49,264 nucleotides of DNA from Alphaproteobacteria bacterium (GTDB lineage: Bacteria > Pseudomonadota > Alphaproteobacteria > Rs-D84), in contig JAIDWS010000034.1 in assembly GCA_029059055.1 (NCBI GenBank), forward strand, positions 20,249 to 69,512, read 5' to 3'. A program made the translations under genes and the position numbers. This document shows, piece by piece, positions 6,876 to 49,264 of the stretch. Within the stretch, counting starts at the first letter, position 1. Each line of letters opens with the position of its first letter. Under the pieces are notes generated by a model. That model made no database searches, was not told the origin of the DNA, and was given only the letters and a program-made list of their open reading frames with translations.

Positions 6876-7345
6876 GTTAAATAAAAGAATGTCCCAACGG
6901 GGCATTTTTTTATTTAAACCCGTGAAACGGGATGGGTTCGAACCGTGGTTCGTCTGCGCAGTTGGCGAAAACAAGAGAAACGCAGTTTAAGCCATACGAG
7001 TGGAAAGGGACCCATCACGGCGCAACAGCGCCGTGATGGGAATTACAATCCGGCTGTCGCGCCAGAAATTCAACCGCCGTTTATCGGCGGTTTAATTTAT
7101 GTTGTGCGTACGGGATTTGAATCCGATACTGGGGTCGCCAAAACTTCATAATTGGGCAAGATTTTATTCCACAAACAAAATCAATAACATATTGAAAAAT
7201 CTTACTAAAAAATCAATTTTGCTTGCCGAATTTAATCGTACGGTTAAATTCAATGCAACTTTAACCCGAAAAACCGACCTGTGTCAAGGTGCTTTTACGC
7301 CGAATTTAACCGTAGGTTTTTATGCGTATACCACAAGGGTCGGGA

Positions 7346-7642
7346 ATGAGAAAAAAGGGATTATTATATCTTTGTAGTGGATGTATTGCGGCATTTACGT
7401 GCAACGTGACACATGGTGCAAAAATATGCAAAGTATACAGCTGTAATGTGGGATATTATGCTCTGGAATATTCTTGTCCCAGGTGCCCGTCGCTGGTGCG
7501 TGCCGACGGTAGTACGCAATATGGAACAACATCGGCGGCGGGGATGTCAGCTATTACTGCGTGCTATGTTCCGGCCGGCGTTAAGTATAAAGATGCCACC
7601 GGCCAGTTTGAATTCACATCAAACTGTAATTATTCACGATAA
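7346..7642 (+). CDS. Small secreted Cys-rich protein
   Basis: Basic then hydrophobic N-terminus; C..GYY....CPRCP; C-terminal CYVP...DATGQFEFTSNCNY. Confidence 0.7.
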   Translation: MRKKGLLYLCSGCIAAFTCNVTHGAKICKVYSCNVGYYALEYSCPRCPSLVRADGSTQYGTTSAAGMSAITACYVPAGVKYKDATGQFEFTSNCNYSR

Positions 7643-7657
7643 AAAAAGGGGGCAGTA

Positions 7658-8215
7658 ATGGCAAAACAGATAAAAAGCTTTTGGCTAAAATTAACCGCCT
7701 GTTTTCTAACATTGTATTTTGCACCGCTTGGGCATTTTATAATATCTTTGTTTGGTATTCGCAGCACCGATGGCAAGGCCTATGCGGGAACGGTATATTG
7801 CGACAACAATGCTGCAACCAAGACGGAATGTCCGGGGCACAGTGGAAATGTGGCAGGTGGCGAGACAATTCGATGTACGTGTCTTACGAATTCGTCAATG
7901 GTTAATGACCTGGAATGCATCCCTGAAGATCGTAACGCCTGGACTCATGAATATGAAGCAGCGCATTTTAAAGAGAGTGGCTGCTATTTGTTAAACAGGT
8001 GTTCTCCAAACGGGTCAACACAAGACTGTAGTACTGCATCGCAATATTGTACCCAGACCTGTACAGGCGGTGTCTGGGGGGTAAAAGTATGGGGTAATTG
8101 CAAGGCGGGATATATAAAAATCAATGGTTCTTGTATCGCGGAATGTTCTATTTCTAATGGCAAAGGGTATGAATATGAAGAATCATCGTCTTCGTCGTCA
8201 TCTTCTGAAATCTAA
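7658..8215 (+). CDS. Secreted or membrane-anchored Cys-rich protein
   Basis: SD-like GGGG; hydrophobic N-terminus; many Cys; CKAGY...GSC; poly-Ser tail within the overlap with the next gene. Confidence 0.7.
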   Translation: MAKQIKSFWLKLTACFLTLYFAPLGHFIISLFGIRSTDGKAYAGTVYCDNNAATKTECPGHSGNVAGGETIRCTCLTNSSMVNDLECIPEDRNAWTHEYEAAHFKESGCYLLNRCSPNGSTQDCSTASQYCTQTCTGGVWGVKVWGNCKAGYIKINGSCIAECSISNGKGYEYEESSSSSSSSEI

Positions 8216-8966
8216 TCTGTTTGTCCCGGCGTTTGTTTATAACCGACATCTGGATTCAACATTATGGGATGCAAATTTACAATTGCGAACGATACCGTCC
8301 AATTCACTCCAAATGATTGTATGGCACTATATCGCATATATGCAAAATGCTGGACTGGCCATCCGGGATGAAGACATTGCGGAAATTTTTTTGCATGGTT
8401 CTACGTCAAACTATTATTATGACGCCACCAGTGATATCGATATCTGTATTGTAATGGATACATCGCGGTTGGCCGCATCAATGCCGGGTGTTGATATATT
8501 TACTGTTACAACGGCAATGAAAATTGCGTGGATGCGCAAGCATAAAATTCGTATATATGGTCGTGGCGTTGATATCAGTATTGTTGATGTCCAGCACCCA
8601 AAATATGGCCCTGGTGTGTACAAGGTGGGACCCGCATATTCTTTACCACGCGATGTGTGGCTGCGGCGTCCCGTACGTATCGACGGAAAAGAAATCCGTA
8701 TTTTGCGGCGCCGCGCCCGGGACATATATCGTCGCTACAAGCGGCTGTTCCGCGAATGTTATAAAAACAAGATGTCTGATACATATCTTGATACATTCCT
8801 GTCGCGGCTGTGGTCCGAACGTCGCGCTGCCTATGACCGTGCCCCGCTTCAGCCTATAACGCCCGAAACAATGGCATTCAGAATGATGCGCCGCTGTGGC
8901 GTTTTGAACAAGATAAAAGAACGTCTGGATAAAATCCGAAATAAAAATTTTACGTTATCGGTGTAA
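8169..8966 (+). CDS. Pol-beta superfamily nucleotidyltransferase-like protein
   Basis: hGS...DxD motif LHGSTSNYYYDATSDIDI plus a later VDIS aspartate; start position uncertain. Confidence 0.7.
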   Translation: MNMKNHRLRRHLLKSNLFVPAFVYNRHLDSTLWDANLQLRTIPSNSLQMIVWHYIAYMQNAGLAIRDEDIAEIFLHGSTSNYYYDATSDIDICIVMDTSRLAASMPGVDIFTVTTAMKIAWMRKHKIRIYGRGVDISIVDVQHPKYGPGVYKVGPAYSLPRDVWLRRPVRIDGKEIRILRRRARDIYRRYKRLFRECYKNKMSDTYLDTFLSRLWSERRAAYDRAPLQPITPETMAFRMMRRCGVLNKIKERLDKIRNKNFTLSV

Positions 8967-9045
8967 AACCGCGGGGCATAAATTCACCCCCGCCGTGCAG
9001 ATTTTATTATTGCCAGAAATTTAATAAACGACTGTAATACTTTTT

Positions 9046-9258
9046 GAATCCACGGTTGTGGGTTCGGGACGTCGAAAATCCCTTATCTGGTCGGCATATT
9101 GTGTATGTCGTTATTTTGTGCGCGGCGCCTTGCCACGCCCCCCGACATTGGTCGGGTTGTTGCAGTTATACAACAGGGGCATCGCCCCAAAGGCTGCAAG
9201 GTCATTATCAGATATGATTTTTCGAACTTCCCGACCACCAGATTCTGGTGGTTTTCTT
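9046..9258 (+). ncRNA. C4-antisense-like structured leader RNA with terminator (copy A)
   Basis: Promoter TTGCCA-N17-TGTAAT at 9010-9038; main stem TGGTCGGG (9149-56)/CCCGACCA (9230-37); TCGAAAA/TTTTCGA and TATCTG/CAGATA complementarities; terminator ACCACCAG-ATT-CTGGTGGT-TTTC. Confidence 0.6.
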
Positions 9259-9280
9259 TGATAACCAAAGGATGGAAGAA

Positions 9281-9883
9281 GTGAAGAAAATCAAACAAAT
9301 TGGTAAAGTCTTGATAATGCTGACGCTGGTTATTATCCCCGGCGTGGCACGGGCGCTGTTGGTGCCACCGGTTGGGGAATGCGTGAGTGGCACATGCCCC
9401 AGCGATGGACAATAAATTGATGGCATCATGTACGGGTGCGGTCGTGCAACGGAATGTTACTGCGTCAACAGTGACGGCGAAGGAATCAATGTTCCCTGTG
9501 GATGCTTTGGCGACGCAGATTGCAAAACCAGCGGTTACGGATGTATTAACGGTCAATGCGCAAAATGCCGCAGTTGTACAAACTGCACCAGCAGCAACAC
9601 CTGGGATTCTGTCGCCACCGGGTATCAACGCCGGACCACAAAAACATGTGGATGTGACGGGACATGCAACACGTCATATTCTTACCGATGCGCGCCCGGA
9701 TATTTCGGCAACAGTTATAACGGCACATCGGGATGCACGCGTTGCCCGACCGATGGGGGCGTCACCGGGACATCTGTGGCGGGAACAACCGCACGAACGG
9801 GATGCTATGTCGGGGCAAACACGATGGGCCGCGATAATTACGGGGCGTTTGAATTCACCGGAAATTCTTATTATTGTGACTAA
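9281..9883 (+). pseudogene. Secreted Cys-rich protein gene interrupted by an in-frame TAA
   Basis: GTG at 9281 gives signal peptide MKKIKQ...GVARA; TAA at 9413-9415; the same frame continues into the Cys-rich ORF 9428-9883. Confidence 0.7.
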
Positions 9884-9953
9884 GGCCATTCAATCCCGCC
9901 CCGGCGGGATTTTGGTTTGACTTTTTGGGGGCGGCTGGCATAATACCATTACC

Positions 9954-10592
9954 ATGTTCACACGAAAAGATATTCACCCGGATATTGACCTCGTTTTGGC
10001 CGCCATCGCACGGGAATTAAAAATGTATGACAATCTGGCGCCGGATGAAATCAACGAATTGACCGGCATCAGCACACATCCCACATTTATCGAATTAAAT
10101 CGACGACATCATGTGTTACAGGCGCGCGCGATGGGTCACCAATATCCGGCCATGACGTATTATCAAATGCTGCGCCCAACCGTCGTGACCCAGATTGTTG
10201 ACATGGAACGCCATTTGGCGCGGTCACGCAACACACGCATTCGGACCATCATTGGCGCCCGGATTCGGGGCACACATTTCAAGCTGGAATTCAATAATGG
10301 TTTACATCATCAGGGATTGATAAAACTGGTTCTGGCATATCCACACATGTCGGCCGCGCAACTGGCCCGTCATTGCATTACGAATAAAATTAATGTTTTG
10401 GGCGATGCGGCACTGAACATGGATGCTGCGTGCATTTCTGAAATCATTGGCCATATACGGTCCTGTGTCAATGAGGACAAACACTGGGCCCCGCATCCCA
10501 TTACGGACCGCGAACACCTGTACGCATCACGATGGCTGGAAATTTTCGAACAATCAACCCAGGGAAAAAATACAAATGGCAAGCAGCGCTGA
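9954..10592 (+). CDS. Hypothetical protein
   Basis: 212-aa ORF with an upstream TTGACT/CATAAT promoter; overlaps the next gene in operon fashion. Confidence 0.65.
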   Translation: MFTRKDIHPDIDLVLAAIARELKMYDNLAPDEINELTGISTHPTFIELNRRHHVLQARAMGHQYPAMTYYQMLRPTVVTQIVDMERHLARSRNTRIRTIIGARIRGTHFKLEFNNGLHHQGLIKLVLAYPHMSAAQLARHCITNKINVLGDAALNMDAACISEIIGHIRSCVNEDKHWAPHPITDREHLYASRWLEIFEQSTQGKNTNGKQR

Positions 10593-10914
10593 ATTTATCG
10601 AATTTGTATATGACCAGGTTGCCGCCGCCGGCGCGGTCCGTTATCGCAAAATGTTTGGCGATTACATGCTGTATTGCGAAGACCGCCCCGTATTGTTAAT
10701 TTGCGACGACACAGTGTATGTTAAACAAATCCCGGAAACATTGACGGTCTTTGCCGCGCATGGCGTGACGCCCGACGCGGGCATTCCATACACGGGCGCG
10801 CGGCCGCACTATATCCTGGACATCGAAAATTCGGATTTGGCGGTCGACATGACGCGCATGCTGGCGCGTGTATTGCCGTTACCCAAACCCAAAAAGCCGC
10901 GGACAAAAAAATGA
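10576..10914 (+). CDS. TfoX/Sxy N-terminal domain protein
   Basis: MASSAEFIEFV.DQ, YRKMFGDY, ICDD.VYVK and PY.GA.P motifs. Confidence 0.85.
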   Translation: MASSAEFIEFVYDQVAAAGAVRYRKMFGDYMLYCEDRPVLLICDDTVYVKQIPETLTVFAAHGVTPDAGIPYTGARPHYILDIENSDLAVDMTRMLARVLPLPKPKKPRTKK

Positions 10915-11219
10915 ATCCGACCGATATTGATATTGACGCCCTGGGCGGGACATCGTTCCAGCGCGACGTATGGCGGGCATTAACCAAAATCCCGCGCGGC
11001 GAAACACGCACATATGCCCAATTGGCCGCGATGGCGGGCCATCCGACGGCAATCCGTGCGGTGGCCAATGCGGTTGGCAAAAATCCCATGCCGCCCATCA
11101 TTCCATGTCACCGCATTATCCGCAGTGATGGCAAAATCGGCGGATATTCCGCCCCGGGCGGCATCACGACCAAGCGGCGTCTGTTGCAATCCGAAGGCGT
11201 GAAATTCCCCAAAATTTAA
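10911..11219 (+). CDS. ogt: Methylated-DNA-protein-cysteine methyltransferase (MGMT family, C-terminal domain only)
   Basis: FQRDVW..L..IPRGETRTY, RAVANA, and active site PCHR. Confidence 0.9.
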   Translation: MNPTDIDIDALGGTSFQRDVWRALTKIPRGETRTYAQLAAMAGHPTAIRAVANAVGKNPMPPIIPCHRIIRSDGKIGGYSAPGGITTKRRLLQSEGVKFPKI

Positions 11220-11494
11220 GTCAACGGGCATATATCTTCAAAGCGCCAGACACCGGTATCATCACTGTATTCGGTATCGGCCGGTGCGAACATCATGCAC
11301 ACCCCGGCGGGCGTTGATAATAAACAGCTGGTCGCGTCACCCGCACTGCTGTATCCGGTGGGGCACGCACCATCGACAATAATCATCGCTGATTCATTAA
11401 TCGCGACATAGCCGGACGGGCAGCTGGTTCCGGGCGCCGCCGCCATCGCAGGCGTTGAAACGATTATGCCCACCAATAAACACACCAAACGCAT
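11216..11494 (-). CDS. Small secreted Cys-rich protein
   Basis: Signal peptide ending PAMA; CPSGY and CPTGY repeats; C-terminal DDTGVWRFEDIC. Confidence 0.7.
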   Translation of the reverse strand: MRLVCLLVGIIVSTPAMAAAPGTSCPSGYVAINESAMIIVDGACPTGYSSAGDATSCLLSTPAGVCMMFAPADTEYSDDTGVWRFEDICPLT

Positions 11495-11496
11495 CG

Positions 11497-11922
11497 TTAA
11501 TCACCCAAATTGGAAAATAAAATTGCTTGGAAATCGGTGGATGCCGCTGCAAAAGTTGCACAGCTACGTGCACAAATTTGAGCACAATTATAGGCCGATT
11601 CCCTATCTTCCAAATACACCCAAGACGATACAGCGGGTGTAACAATTTTACACCAACAATACCGATTATTCTCACTGGTGGTACTGATCTTAACTGTATC
11701 CGATATGGCACCTGTGTGGCTGCCCTTTTGGCTTCCACAAAACATAACACCATCTATCTGAATCTTATTACAACTAAATGTCCAGTTAGATTGGCCCAAT
11801 GCCACTGTCTGATTATATGCACAATTCGCACTGGGCGTTAATTTAACACATTTTGTTGCGGCATGTACGGATGACGTTGCCGCCATTAACCCCACAGTAA
11901 AACACAACAGATAAATTTTCAT
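11497..11922 (-). CDS. Secreted Cys-rich protein
   Basis: Signal peptide MKIYLL...VHA; YCWCK..PAVSSWV and CAQICARSCA motifs. Confidence 0.7.
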   Translation of the reverse strand: MKIYLLCFTVGLMAATSSVHAATKCVKLTPSANCAYNQTVALGQSNWTFSCNKIQIDGVMFCGSQKGSHTGAISDTVKISTTSENNRYCWCKIVTPAVSSWVYLEDRESAYNCAQICARSCATFAAASTDFQAILFSNLGD

Positions 11923-12170
11923 TTTGGTTGCAATCCCCCCATTTTTTGCCGCAATTAATCGGTGGTTTAGATTAGGCAATTTTTCCGTTTGACACATGCC
12001 CAGAAATTGTATATTTTTACATCAATTCATCAGGAATAAATACCGCCAAATTAATCGACCGATTATTTTAGCGGTGCTTTTTTATGCCACGCGCCCCGGA
12101 TTTTCGGGGGACGCAACCCTGTGCATTCGGCACAGATAAAACAACAAAAAATCCCCCGATTGGGGGATTT

Positions 12171-20962: not shown

Positions 20963-21700
20963 TTAACGGCCGCGTTCCAATGCCGATGTAAATTGGATAA
21001 TTCTGGTCATTTCACGTTCCAAACGCCCGGCGGTAAACGAACTGGTGCTGGAATCCACATGAATTCGACATCCATCCGTATCCGCCACGCCATATCCGCG
21101 AATTTTGGATTGAACATCCAAATACACAACCCCAGGCTGATGCCCACGATTAATAACCGACGGGTCAAACACCATGTTATAACGTGCCGAAATTTGCGCA
21201 CAGACGCGTGCAACATTCCCCAGGCACCGAAAAACAGGCACAACCTGGCAACGCCCCCCCCCGGCGATATTTTTAACATATTCGTTGGTTCCACACAGTG
21301 ATGTATACCCATGGCGACGATAAAATTTTTCCGCACGCGGCATAGACACCAAATCAACCGTATTGGTATGAACGGCGGCGGCCGATTCCGCATGGGCCAA
21401 CAATCTGGCCCCAATCCCGCCGGATTGATATTCCGGCAATACAAACAAATTGTGAACGACGGCCTGTTTCCGTTGGATGTCCCCCTGGATGAATCCAATC
21501 ATATGGTCCCCATCCCATGCCCCGAATGCAAATCCGGTCGGCTTTTGCTGTTTCAACGTCTGGTAAAAATGCGCCGCATACACATCCGACCACGCATTGG
21601 CCGATAACGCGCGCGACGCCGCCCCGCGAATACGAACAAAATCATCCCAGATGCCGGGGATACGCTGATTAAAAATCGGATAGATGCAGATATTTGTCAT
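20963..21700 (-). CDS. GNAT family N-acetyltransferase
   Basis: LFVLPEYQSGGIGARLL acetyl-CoA motif; A.KFY...GY. Confidence 0.8.
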   Translation of the reverse strand: MTNICIYPIFNQRIPGIWDDFVRIRGAASRALSANAWSDVYAAHFYQTLKQQKPTGFAFGAWDGDHMIGFIQGDIQRKQAVVHNLFVLPEYQSGGIGARLLAHAESAAAVHTNTVDLVSMPRAEKFYRRHGYTSLCGTNEYVKNIAGGGRCQVVPVFRCLGNVARVCAQISARYNMVFDPSVINRGHQPGVVYLDVQSKIRGYGVADTDGCRIHVDSSTSSFTAGRLEREMTRIIQFTSALERGR

Positions 21701-38075: not shown

Positions 38076-38137
38076 ACCAACACACCTGGCGTGATATAAT
38101 TCTTGAACATTCGCGTATGATGCGATATACTGGACCT

Positions 38138-38300
38138 GCATTGGGAAACCGGTGTAGGCTTCAAAACCTGACAAAAGCAGTCGAAAGACTTTAAACACTC
38201 CACATTGGTTGGAGGGTCGTGAATATCCAATAAACGACGCTATTGCTTTTGATAGTTTTGAACCTCCAACCGCCCCACAAAATGTGCGGCGGTGTTTTTT
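38138..38300 (+). ncRNA. C4-antisense-like structured leader RNA with terminator (copy B)
   Basis: Promoter TTGAAC-N17-TATACT at 38103-38131; stem GGTTGGAGG/CCTCCAACC; TTCAAAAC/GTTTTGAA and CAAAAGCA/TGCTTTTG pairings; covaries with copy C. Confidence 0.7.
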
Positions 38301-38324
38301 ATAAACGTAAAAGGAGTTAAAACT

Positions 38325-38552
38325 ATGGCTAAATTATTAATTGATGCAAATTATTACGGTAACATTATGCGCTGTGCGCGGCAACACCTGCGCATCAGTG
38401 TGGCGGACGCTGCGGCGTTATTGAAAATGAGCAAGAAAGATTATCAAAAATGCGAACGCGGGGATGAATTATTTAGCGAAGGCACGCTTCGCCGCTTTTT
38501 CCACGGGGCGTTCGCATTGCTGATTATCAAACGCAGCCGGGCAAATTTATAA
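38325..38552 (+). CDS. Small XRE/Cro-like helix-turn-helix protein (copy 1)
   Basis: SD AAGGAG; G..MR.AR..L.IS..DAA.LL.MS...Y...ERG; duplicated at 42171-42398. Confidence 0.8.
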   Translation: MAKLLIDANYYGNIMRCARQHLRISVADAAALLKMSKKDYQKCERGDELFSEGTLRRFFHGAFALLIIKRSRANL

Positions 38553-42106: not shown

Positions 42107-42170
42107 AAATCCCCGCAATCGGGGATTTTTTTGTGTGGAATGCGCCCCCAGGGAAATGGGCGGGCGCGGG

Positions 42171-42398
42171 TTATAAATTTGCCCGGCTGCGCTTGATAAT
42201 CAGCAATGCGAATGCCCCGTGGAAAAAGCGGCGCAGCGTGCCTTCGCTAAACAAATCATCCCCGCGTTCGCATCGCTGATAATCTTTCTTGCTCATTTTC
42301 AATAACGCGGCGGCGTCCGCCACACTGATGCGCAGGTGTTGCCGCGCACAGCGCATGATATTGCCATAGTAGTTTGCATCGATTAATAATTTAGCCAT
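42171..42398 (-). CDS. Small XRE/Cro-like helix-turn-helix protein (copy 2)
   Basis: 73 of 75 aa identical to 38325-38552. Confidence 0.8.
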   Translation of the reverse strand: MAKLLIDANYYGNIMRCARQHLRISVADAAALLKMSKKDYQRCERGDDLFSEGTLRRFFHGAFALLIIKRSRANL

Positions 42399-42422
42399 AG
42401 TTTTAACTCCCTTGGTTTTTTA

Positions 42423-42591
42423 TAAAAAACACCGCCGCACATTATGTGGGCGGTTGGAGGTTAGTAACTATTGAAACGATAGTGTCGCTTATTCAGATAT
42501 ATCGCGACCCTCCAACCAATGGTTGGAGATGTTTTGTGTCTTCGCAGACAGTTTCAACGGGTTACTACACCCTGCACCGGATTCCCAATGC
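42423..42591 (-). ncRNA. C4-antisense-like structured leader RNA with terminator (copy C)
   Basis: Promoter TTGAAC-N17-TATACT at 42598-42626 (minus); same stems as copy B; TAGTAAC/GTTACTA and TTGAAAC/GTTTCAA pairings. Confidence 0.7.
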
Positions 42592-42652
42592 GAATCCAGT
42601 ATATCGCATTATACGCGAATGTTCAAGGAATTATGTAATATTTGGTGTGTAT

Positions 42653-48895: not shown

Positions 48896-48955
48896 CAAAA
48901 TATATTGACACAGAGCAATTTTGTGCAAATATATCATTGATAAAAGGATACCCGC

Positions 48956-49264
48956 ATGTTCAAAAATAAATTTGGAGCATTGATAAGCCACCCTTTGGTT
49001 CGGCAAATCGAACAGGACATCAACAAAACCAAAGATAAATGGGAAACGCAGGAGGCGCAAAATTTCCTGAGTCTAATATTCGGCAGTTATAACCCAGAAG
49101 ATTTTGAGCATTTAATCTTTGATAAAAAACCAACCCGATATAATATCGAACAGATGTTGCGTTGTGATAATTTGCCATACAACTATGGCAACAAAACTCA
49201 ATATTATATGAAATGGTTGGTATGCCAAATAACAATGCCAAATAATGTGGATTCTTTTAATCAT
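48956..49264 (+). CDS. Hypothetical protein, truncated by the window end
   Basis: TTGACA at 48905; SD AAGGA; frame MFKNKFGALISHPLVRQIEQD... stays open for 103 codons to the edge (not in the ORF track). Confidence 0.6.
   Translation, partial: MFKNKFGALISHPLVRQIEQDINKTKDKWETQEAQNFLSLIFGSYNPEDFEHLIFDKKPTRYNIEQMLRCDNLPYNYGNKTQYYMKWLVCQITMPNNVDSFNH

Follow-up and report, generated by a model that had tools for sequence, protein, structure and literature searches.

Here, we describe a structured RNA leader, designated copy A, that occupies positions 9043-9262 of a stretch of 49,264 nucleotides (nt) from an Alphaproteobacteria bacterium (GTDB lineage Bacteria; Pseudomonadota; Alphaproteobacteria; Rs-D84; NCBI GenBank assembly GCA_029059055.1, contig JAIDWS010000034.1, positions 20,249 to 69,512 of the forward strand); the whole of this stretch is referred to as the window. 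Copy A is diverged from, but genuinely homologous to, the leaders at 38138 and 42591 of the window (copy B, 38133-38308; copy C, 42416-42596). With moderate confidence, we read copy A as a cis-acting transcription attenuator with two competing folds, that is, a bistable leader of the type represented by the Brt RNAs of Bartonella.

The source genome (998 kb in 38 contigs, 50.0% G+C) was searched for paralogues by iterated nhmmer, which produced 56 B/C-type and 45 A-type matches that merged into 80 non-overlapping copies, namely 24 clear A-type copies (copy A among them), 9 intermediates and 47 B/C-type copies; the A-type profile reached the B/C-type copies via the intermediates. A covariance model built from 41 B/C-type copies and no A-type sequence (R1) detects copy A over its full length (9043-9267, model positions 1-185) at 27.1 bits and an E-value of 1.3e-6, the best non-family match in the same search scoring 11.7 bits. 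The preliminary description of this DNA, made from the letters of the window, had counted copy A as a third leader with almost no primary identity to the other two: the count has grown to 80 and the lack of identity was overstated, whereas the proposed homology held, with R1 detecting copy A and folding supporting the stems. At E <= 1e-3, R1 also detects 21 of the 24 A-type copies (two partially) and misses L036, L044 and L046. Beyond the source genome, matches to R1 are found in 80 of the 81 other genomes of the genus, in 108 of the 121 genomes of the order (source genome included) and in 16 of 149 genomes of other families in the class, where they are full length and reach 92 bits. Membership of copy A in the family is thus indicated by the match to a model of B/C-type copies only, by ordered covarying helices and by copy-specific pairing between two upstream segments (keys a1 and b1) and two downstream segments (anti-keys a' and b'). 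Rfam searches of the window and of 19 family loci returned only tRNAs at the gathering score, and no Rfam entry for the family emerged from the window, the further family loci or the Brt loci searched.

Positions 9040-9262 fold at -92 kcal/mol, compared with -65.6 +/- 4.5 kcal/mol for shuffled sequences (z = -5.82; none of 200 shuffles was as stable), and copies B and C yield z values of -5.5 and -7.4, respectively. The minimum free energy (MFE) fold of copy A holds the 5' hairpin, both key:anti-key helices, the alternative hairpin and the terminator. The two keys, the two anti-keys, the alternative hairpin and the main stem all lie where the preliminary description had placed them, and so does the terminator overlapping the main stem. 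The elements of copy A and its gene, all on the plus strand, are as follows.

9011-9038, plus strand: putative promoter, with a -35 element TTGCCA (9011-9016), a 16-nt spacer and a -10 element TGTAAT (9033-9038), assigned from the family alignment.
9046-9065, plus strand: P1, the 5' hairpin, GAATCCAC-GGTT-GTGGGTTC, present in the MFE fold.
9066-9082, plus strand: P2, a small hairpin GGGA...TCCC with key a1 (TCGAAAA, 9072-9078) in its loop, seen in the truncated-transcript fold.
9084-9091, plus strand: key b1, TATCTGGT, including TATCTG at 9084-9089; its RNAduplex partner is 9207-9214.
9092-9138, plus strand: variable hairpins P3 (9092-9110) and P4 (9120-9138), present in the MFE and truncated-transcript folds.
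9141-9156, plus strand: alternative hairpin CCCGA-CATTGG-TCGGG, segment 1 (CCCGAC, 9141-9146) with segment 2 (GTCGGG, 9151-9156), present in the MFE fold.
9149-9237, plus strand: main stem, segment 2 (TGGTCGGG, 9149-9156) with segment 3 (CCCGACCA, 9230-9237), enclosing P6, P7 and the anti-keys.
9160-9199, plus strand: P6, with outer stem TTGCAG/CTGCAA, inner hairpin GGGGC-ATC-GCCCC (9176-9188) and flanks TTATACAACA and AAAGG.
9202-9225, plus strand: P7 hairpin TCAT...ATGA with b' in its loop (9207-9214; CAGATA, 9209-9214), followed by a' (TTTTCGA, 9219-9225).
9233-9262, plus strand: intrinsic terminator called by the consensus scan, a 9-pair stem (9233-9253) followed by the T-rich tail TTCTTTGATA.
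9281-9883, plus strand: downstream gene, with a signal peptide from GTG (9281-9412), an in-frame TAA (9413-9415) and, in the same frame, a cysteine-rich (Cys-rich) domain from ATG (9428-9883).

The terminator and the 3' arm of the main stem share 5 nt (9233-9237). The main stem with the elements it encloses constitutes a core resembling that of sRNA-Xcc1. A promoter was also noted in the preliminary description; the one assigned here is putative: it matches the conserved TTG...TATAMT columns of the 24 A-type paralogues, but its -10 element is weak, and a generic sigma-70 scan, which gave only TTCACC-16-TATTAT at 8983-9010, did not call it because the second position of the -10 element is G. 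The motif RCCA directly follows the 7-8-bp main stem in 16 of 24 A-type copies (window 9238-9241, for instance), compared with 1 of 41 B/C-type copies, and resembles the acceptor end of a tRNA.

Alignments of the 24 A-type copies (A2) and of 41 B/C-type copies (A3) show a common module order: promoter, P1, P2 with a1 in its loop, b1, P3 (plus P4 in the A type), segment 1, segment 2, P6, P7 with b' in its loop, a', segment 3, terminator, ribosome-binding site and start codon. For the B/C type, pairing across the helices, counting the pseudoknots, amounts to 94.9% (79.5% after shuffling), with changes on both sides of 28 of 38 pairs; in the A type, the helices are 93.7% paired (84.9% after shuffling) and 19 of 37 pairs show such double-sided change. 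Among individual A-type helices, P1 is 92.2% paired with double-sided change in 3 of 7 pairs, the P6 outer stem is 96.7% paired with all 7 of 7 pairs covarying, P7 is 98.6% paired, and the helix between a1 (9072-9078) and a' (9219-9225) is 92.6% paired with double-sided change in 3 of 7 pairs. The B/C-type equivalent of P3 is 93.9% paired and all 4 of its 4 pairs covary.

Given that the keys align poorly by column, their pairing was tested by duplex energy with RNAduplex across the 24 A-type paralogues. Own key:anti-key duplexes average -16.7 kcal/mol, compared with -7.2 kcal/mol for foreign ones; keys find their own anti-key as the best partner in 22 of 24 cases, and anti-keys their own key in all 24. 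Together with the covariation, these energies bear out the key/anti-key and alternative-hairpin scheme of the preliminary description. The keys are the least conserved parts of the leader, b1 and b' being 34-37% identical where the 75-amino-acid (aa) coding sequences found downstream of many copies are 73% identical, a level of divergence that fits a constraint that may act on pairing only. Accelerated diversification of the keys was considered and found unsupported: with the 75-aa coding sequences averaging 73% identity, old paralogues under a pairing constraint suffice. Being hypervariable and lacking any other target, the keys are best read as structural partners, not as a sequence-specific sensor.

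The case for two competing folds is based on segment 2, which pairs in a copy-specific manner both with segment 1 (alternative hairpin) and with segment 3 (main stem). The three segments covary as triples, as in CTCCAAC/GGTTGGAGG/CCTCCAACC, CTCCTGA/GGTCAGGAGG/CCTCCTGACC and CCCCGAC/GGTCGGGG/CCCCGACC (segments 1/2/3), and further variants occur in other genomes of the class. Across 28 distinct triples, own duplexes are more stable than cross-duplexes for both segments 1:2 (-12.5 vs -7.6 kcal/mol) and segments 2:3 (-19.0 vs -10.2 kcal/mol). Pairing of the main stem reaches 93.2% in A-type copies (4 of 10 pairs covarying) and 98.1% in B/C-type copies (5 of 9 covarying); the B/C-type alternative hairpin is 95.7% paired (3 of 7 covarying). 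Terminator and main stem share a median of 5 nt in the 24 A-type copies and 4 nt in the 41 B/C-type copies, with at least 3 nt shared in 23 and 38 of these, respectively. Within the isolated 3' domain, the energy difference between the two states is -0.4 +/- 4.9 kcal/mol for 19 A-type copies and 2.8 +/- 5.5 kcal/mol for 40 B/C-type copies, a comparison that leaves out five A-type copies and one B/C-type copy for which column placement yielded too few pairs. These data directly demonstrate the helices and the covariation within them, the nucleotides shared with the terminator and the closeness in energy of the two folds. Thus, the family contains what defines an attenuator in general: an alternative helix that overlaps an intrinsic terminator and a third segment able to sequester it. 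Nested folding of the complete copy A gives -92.0 kcal/mol for the combination of alternative hairpin, keys and terminator and -80.1 kcal/mol with the main stem forced, and stepwise folds of the growing transcript end in the terminator fold (OFF).

Under the proposed mechanism, each family member would be a self-contained leader that consists of its own promoter, a structured RNA of about 215 nt and an intrinsic terminator, with the ribosome-binding site and the gene, in the case of copy A one predicted to encode a secreted Cys-rich protein, 20-30 nt past the terminator. In the OFF state, segment 1 would pair with segment 2, while the a1:a' and b1:b' helices would seal the RNA and continue onto the CCC of segment 3, so that the full 9-pair terminator could form and transcription would end after a short RNA. 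In the ON state, segment 2 would instead pair with segment 3, and the resulting main stem would take 5 nt from the base of the terminator, allowing RNA polymerase to read through into the gene. That the leader actually switches between these states, and that OFF is the default, we infer from the structural findings above. The key helices cross the main stem and accordingly would either form pseudoknots in both states or exist in the OFF state only.

Several observations weigh against this interpretation. The A-type alternative hairpin is 85.5% paired and covaries weakly, with double-sided change in just 1 of 7 pairs, and the short overlap (3-5 nt) implies that the mutual exclusion of main stem and terminator is not absolute. 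A static double pseudoknot present in both states could leave the role of the keys in switching unproven. An RNA-library contig (X7; 258 nt, depth 3), the only one to span 9076-9330, crosses the terminator, with possible DNA carry-over. Two more such contigs cover 9410-9557 and 9666-9824; contigs reveal neither RNA ends nor RNA levels, and parts of 8800-10000 are uncovered, gaps from which nothing is concluded. The in-frame stop codon means that copy A may regulate a dead gene in this assembly. Position 9415 is T, giving a TAT codon, both in X1, a DNA-like run of depth 6.5 (251 nt from the contig end), and in X13, a contig of an RNA library (6 nt from its end); the gene for the signal peptide and Cys-rich domain is probably intact in related strains, and broken or mis-called in the source assembly. 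Finally, the functional analogy with Brt is drawn from remote similarity: R1 matches none of 40 Bartonella Brt loci with default filters and none of nine with filters off, and Brt RNAs carry a GC-rich 3' hairpin lacking a U-tract where the source-genome family has canonical terminators.

The downstream genes were sorted with a crude classifier, which assigned the 80 copies to 26 signal-peptide Cys-rich open reading frames (ORFs), 17 genes for the 75-aa helix-turn-helix (HTH) protein, 10 other signal-peptide or membrane ORFs, 5 XRE genes, 4 Cys-rich ORFs without a signal peptide, 11 others and 7 with none, meaning no same-strand ORF of at least 50 aa within 200 nt. The family thus precedes at least five unrelated gene classes. 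This diversity agrees with the earlier suggestion that the RNA moves independently of its gene, which must be qualified in that leader and gene often co-duplicate: among 51 copies, 141 pairs combine alignable leaders with homologous proteins, compared with 16 pairs that have unrelated proteins. Recruitment for surface-protein control, also suggested earlier, likewise finds partial support, but no direction of recruitment is apparent. According to the alignments, most copies are co-oriented with the ribosome-binding site and start codon and lie at a fixed 20-30 nt upstream of them; the orientation test on raw ORFs (downstream ORF at 73 of 80 copies, 63 of 80 for the mirrored control) is uninformative without gene calls. 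Pfam has no family for the Cys-rich ORF 9428-9883, and the 75-aa protein matches HTH_31 below threshold. In distant genomes of the class, the translations downstream of the leaders read as outer-membrane beta-barrel-like proteins, lipoproteins, pilin-like Cys-rich proteins and an XRE regulator.

Ten neighbouring ORFs searched against Pfam yielded NTP_transf_2, TfoX_N and, below threshold, HTH_31. Just upstream of copy A, ORF 8124-8966 encodes the nucleotidyltransferase domain NTP_transf_2 (27.1 bits), and ORF 10423-10914 on the downstream side encodes a TfoX N-terminal domain (36.2 bits). Further Cys-rich ORFs flank copy A at 7322-8215 and 11216-11997 (106 and 185 aa on the plus strand, 92 and 166 aa on the minus strand); some of them share a C..GYY...C..CP-type tail with ORF 9428-9883, and one gave sub-threshold Pfam matches to CC and cEGF only. 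A 75-aa HTH gene follows each of copies B and C, and the two modules point towards each other at a distance of about 3.6 kb (38103-38552 and 42170-42640), an arrangement that resembles inverted terminal modules flanking three ORFs; several such modules are found elsewhere near contig ends. Outside the window, contig C11 (20323-21356) carries four family copies head to tail on the minus strand, with starts at 21356, 20975, 20750 and 20473, three of which have no ORF of at least 50 aa within 200 nt downstream.

Other explanations of the family differ in what they make of the downstream gene. If the leaders were stand-alone small RNA (sRNA) genes, the terminated RNA of about 215 nt, or a core of about 90 nt, would act in trans on mRNAs or proteins, and the downstream gene would be merely adjacent or separately expressed. 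A putative promoter of its own and a strong terminator suit such a gene, as do the 7 of 80 copies that have no same-strand ORF of at least 50 aa within 200 nt, three of them in the head-to-tail run on contig C11; in addition, the nearest Rfam model, sRNA-Xcc1, represents an 88-nt RNA seen on Northern blots in the consulted part of PMC2996969, and a trans role for Brt RNAs is also proposed in the consulted sections of two Brt papers (PMC5387305, PMC8070961). However, the keys and anti-keys, the sole hypervariable exposed segments, are complementary only to each other (38 of 40 copies have no other site), and most copies are fixed 20-30 nt before a ribosome-binding site and start codon with which they are co-oriented, so that we regard the sRNA explanation as unlikely. 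A structured 5' untranslated region (UTR) that controls translation or mRNA stability would act downstream of transcription, with the free, C-rich segment 3 pairing with the purine-rich ribosome-binding site. Segment 3 does look like an anti-Shine-Dalgarno sequence (CTTCC at 9228-9232, opposite GGAAG at 9274-9278), 6 of 9 intermediates (e.g., C15:45680-45941, L056) carry CAGGAG at the ribosome-binding site as a repeat of segment 2 GGTCAGGAGG, one A-type fold pairs segment 3 with a downstream GGGGG, and the RNA-library contig that crosses the terminator would be expected of such a UTR. Yet the extended complementarity is confined to one subtype, the B/C type showing 4 nt by eye, and in nearly all copies segment 3 is separated from the ribosome-binding site by a canonical terminator with its U-tract; control at this level as the primary mechanism appears decidedly improbable. 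As a separate observation, the CAGGAG of the intermediates is complementary to segments 1 and 3, and translation could also be gated in that subtype.

The two remaining explanations, each of which we consider very improbable, are antisense control of the c4 type and a selfish repeat. According to the former, which is largely refuted, a processed core bearing a' and b' would repress an a2/b2 target at the downstream ribosome-binding site, as in immI of phages P1 and P7. The upstream a1/b1-like keys complementary to b' and a' within a stem-enclosed core recall c4, and the RCCA of most A-type copies would suit processing by RNase P, but this motif is virtually confined to that type, and there is no Rfam match to a C4 family, no preference for the own-copy downstream region, no second bipartite site and no icd- or ant-like gene. 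A selfish repeat, related in kind to miniature inverted-repeat transposable elements (MITE-like) or repetitive extragenic palindromes (REP-like) and carrying promoter- and terminator-like sequence with no regulatory role, would account for the very high copy number (80 in 998 kb) and for the many copies near contig ends, as is typical of repeats that break assemblies. It would hardly account for compensatory change in all helices despite the divergence (b1 and b' at 34-37% identity against 73% for coding sequences), for retention in 108 of the 121 genomes of the order and in other families of the class, or for the fixed position and orientation relative to start codons.

If the attenuator interpretation is correct, a large fraction of the cell-envelope and regulator genes in an entire order of small-genome gut bacteria would be under the control of one RNA architecture, and we know of no riboswitch or attenuator family with a comparable density. 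More tentatively, Brt-type RNAs might extend beyond Bartonella, as one branch of a superfamily of bistable, double-pseudoknotted attenuator leaders that spans the class and has expanded in this reduced gut lineage, and the roughly 80 copies per Mb (about 1 gene in 12) might form a single regulon in which one shared signal gates surface and secreted proteins along with small HTH regulators, private keys preventing cross-misfolding; we would sooner doubt than accept this broader scheme.

Three known systems invite comparison. The c4 logic of phages P1 and P7, with its a1b1 keys, was reportedly worked out by Citron and Schuster in 1990. In c4 (RF01695) with c4-a1b1, likewise, two upstream segments are complementary to two segments inside a stem-closed RNA, all varying between copies with the complementarity retained; the source-genome family differs in its dozens of copies, located on the chromosome ahead of cellular genes, and in the lack of phage immunity genes. 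The core of phage c4 is processed by RNase P, and RCCA might permit the same in A-type copies. The c4 and c4-a1b1 motifs are listed in a table of Weinberg et al. 2010 (PMC2864571). The preliminary description had called the leader C4-like, a label that fails as a statement of family membership and survives as an analogy for the key/anti-key logic only. Rfam C4, c4-2 and c4-a1b1 gave no match at the gathering score in the window, at E <= 10 around copies A and B or at E <= 1 in 20 other copies. An a2/b2 target was not found in the 110 nt downstream of the leaders, for which neither the anti-keys (-9.45 kcal/mol for the own copy vs -8.88 for others, with scattered ranks in RNAduplex) nor the keys (-14.3 vs -15.0 kcal/mol) show an own-copy preference; an exact genome-wide search for bipartite sites found no extra site for 38 of 40 copies and only short blocks for the other 2, and a loose version of this search was uninformative. 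A phage immunity context is also missing, the ten neighbouring ORFs searched against Pfam including no icd/ant-like or antirepressor gene. Hence, for window positions 9043-9262, the phage c4 reading gives way to that of a chromosomal attenuator.

With sRNA-Xcc1 (RF02221), the family shares a main stem that encloses two hairpins, a U-rich single strand and a C-rich closure. The Rfam model matches copy A at 9150-9244 (model positions 1-87) with 30.2 bits, below the gathering score of 53, and provides the only Rfam match for copy B (34.8 bits) and for 11 of 20 other copies (28-40 bits), all below threshold. The model lacks the upstream key domain, the alternative hairpin and P1-P4, and sRNA-Xcc1 belongs to other taxa and to the context of Xanthomonas integron cassettes. 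It is, however, also located upstream of genes, such as an ORF6N gene in APSE phages and, in the consulted part of a preprint (10.1101/2025.06.18.660453), symE.

The Brt RNAs of Bartonella are likely remote relatives of the source-genome family, although the evidence stops short of proof of homology. According to the consulted sections of Tu et al. 2016 (PMC5387305), Brt1-9 lie upstream of Trp (XRE) genes and are abundant while the trp genes are barely transcribed, and the authors regard Brt as genus-specific and hypothesise a riboswitch-like antiterminator. The portion consulted of a review (PMC8070961) reports that deletion of the 3' stem-loop of brt1 results in high trp1 transcription, with an attenuator role, and that a reporter placed behind brt1 responds to heme. 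Brt loci were identified by the BrtR primer (supplement of PMC5387305), which matches exactly at 116 loci in many Bartonella species; it finds no match within 3 mismatches in five genomes of the class, and therefore none of these is a close relative of Bartonella. Rfam returned nothing for nine Brt loci.

A covariance model built from 30 Brt sequences only (R2) recovers the core of six A-type copies of the source genome in the correct register (E-values from 3e-4 to 0.035). It matches copy A at 9151-9235 with 14.6 bits and E = 1e-4, again in the correct register, in a 501-nt search with filters off, and gives no match to copy A at E <= 1 in a 105-kb search. A further match of R2 in the window, at 48950-49119 on the minus strand (14.7 bits), falls in coding sequence without family features and was taken as chance. 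An intermediate element from another genome of the class (L122) is matched by R2 at 40.7 bits (E = 2e-9), by R1 at 39 bits and by a Brt hidden Markov model at E = 1.4e-4.

The two groups differ in scale and in the genes they precede: the 9 copies of B. henselae all precede XRE genes, whereas the 1-Mb source genome has 80, mostly before genes for secreted Cys-rich proteins, outer-membrane-type proteins and the 75-aa HTH protein. Copy A is not directly upstream of an XRE-type HTH (trp) gene, although other copies of the source genome do precede XRE/HTH genes. Brt elements end in an invariant hairpin, GCGAGGGCGCTCGC, with no U-tract; AACCGG(N)GGGG then immediately precedes the trp start (e.g., L147:601-825). 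Segments 1, 2 and 3 are invariant in the 30 aligned Brt sequences, in part by selection, given that the primer sits on segment 2.

In other respects, the two groups resemble each other. Both are multi-copy RNAs of about 200 nt with their own promoter, directly upstream of and co-oriented with a gene. As mapped on 10 Brt loci, the module order is the same: P1, P2 with a1 in its loop, b1, P3 and the segment 1/2 hairpin are followed by P6 with its inner hairpin, P7 with b' in its loop, a' and segment 3, which pairs back to segment 2. The keys of Brt also covary, with own duplexes at -17.2 kcal/mol and cross-duplexes at -10.6 kcal/mol (87 distinct pairs) and with double-sided change in 6 of 8 a1:a' pairs and 5 of 6 b1:b' pairs (11 of 14). 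New here are the tested link to Brt, the covariation among all three segments, the energy comparison of the two folds and the c4-target tests with their negative outcome. The Brt RNAs being the only experimentally handled relatives, the link would provide them with a structure supported by covariation and the source-genome family with a testable function, transcription attenuation.

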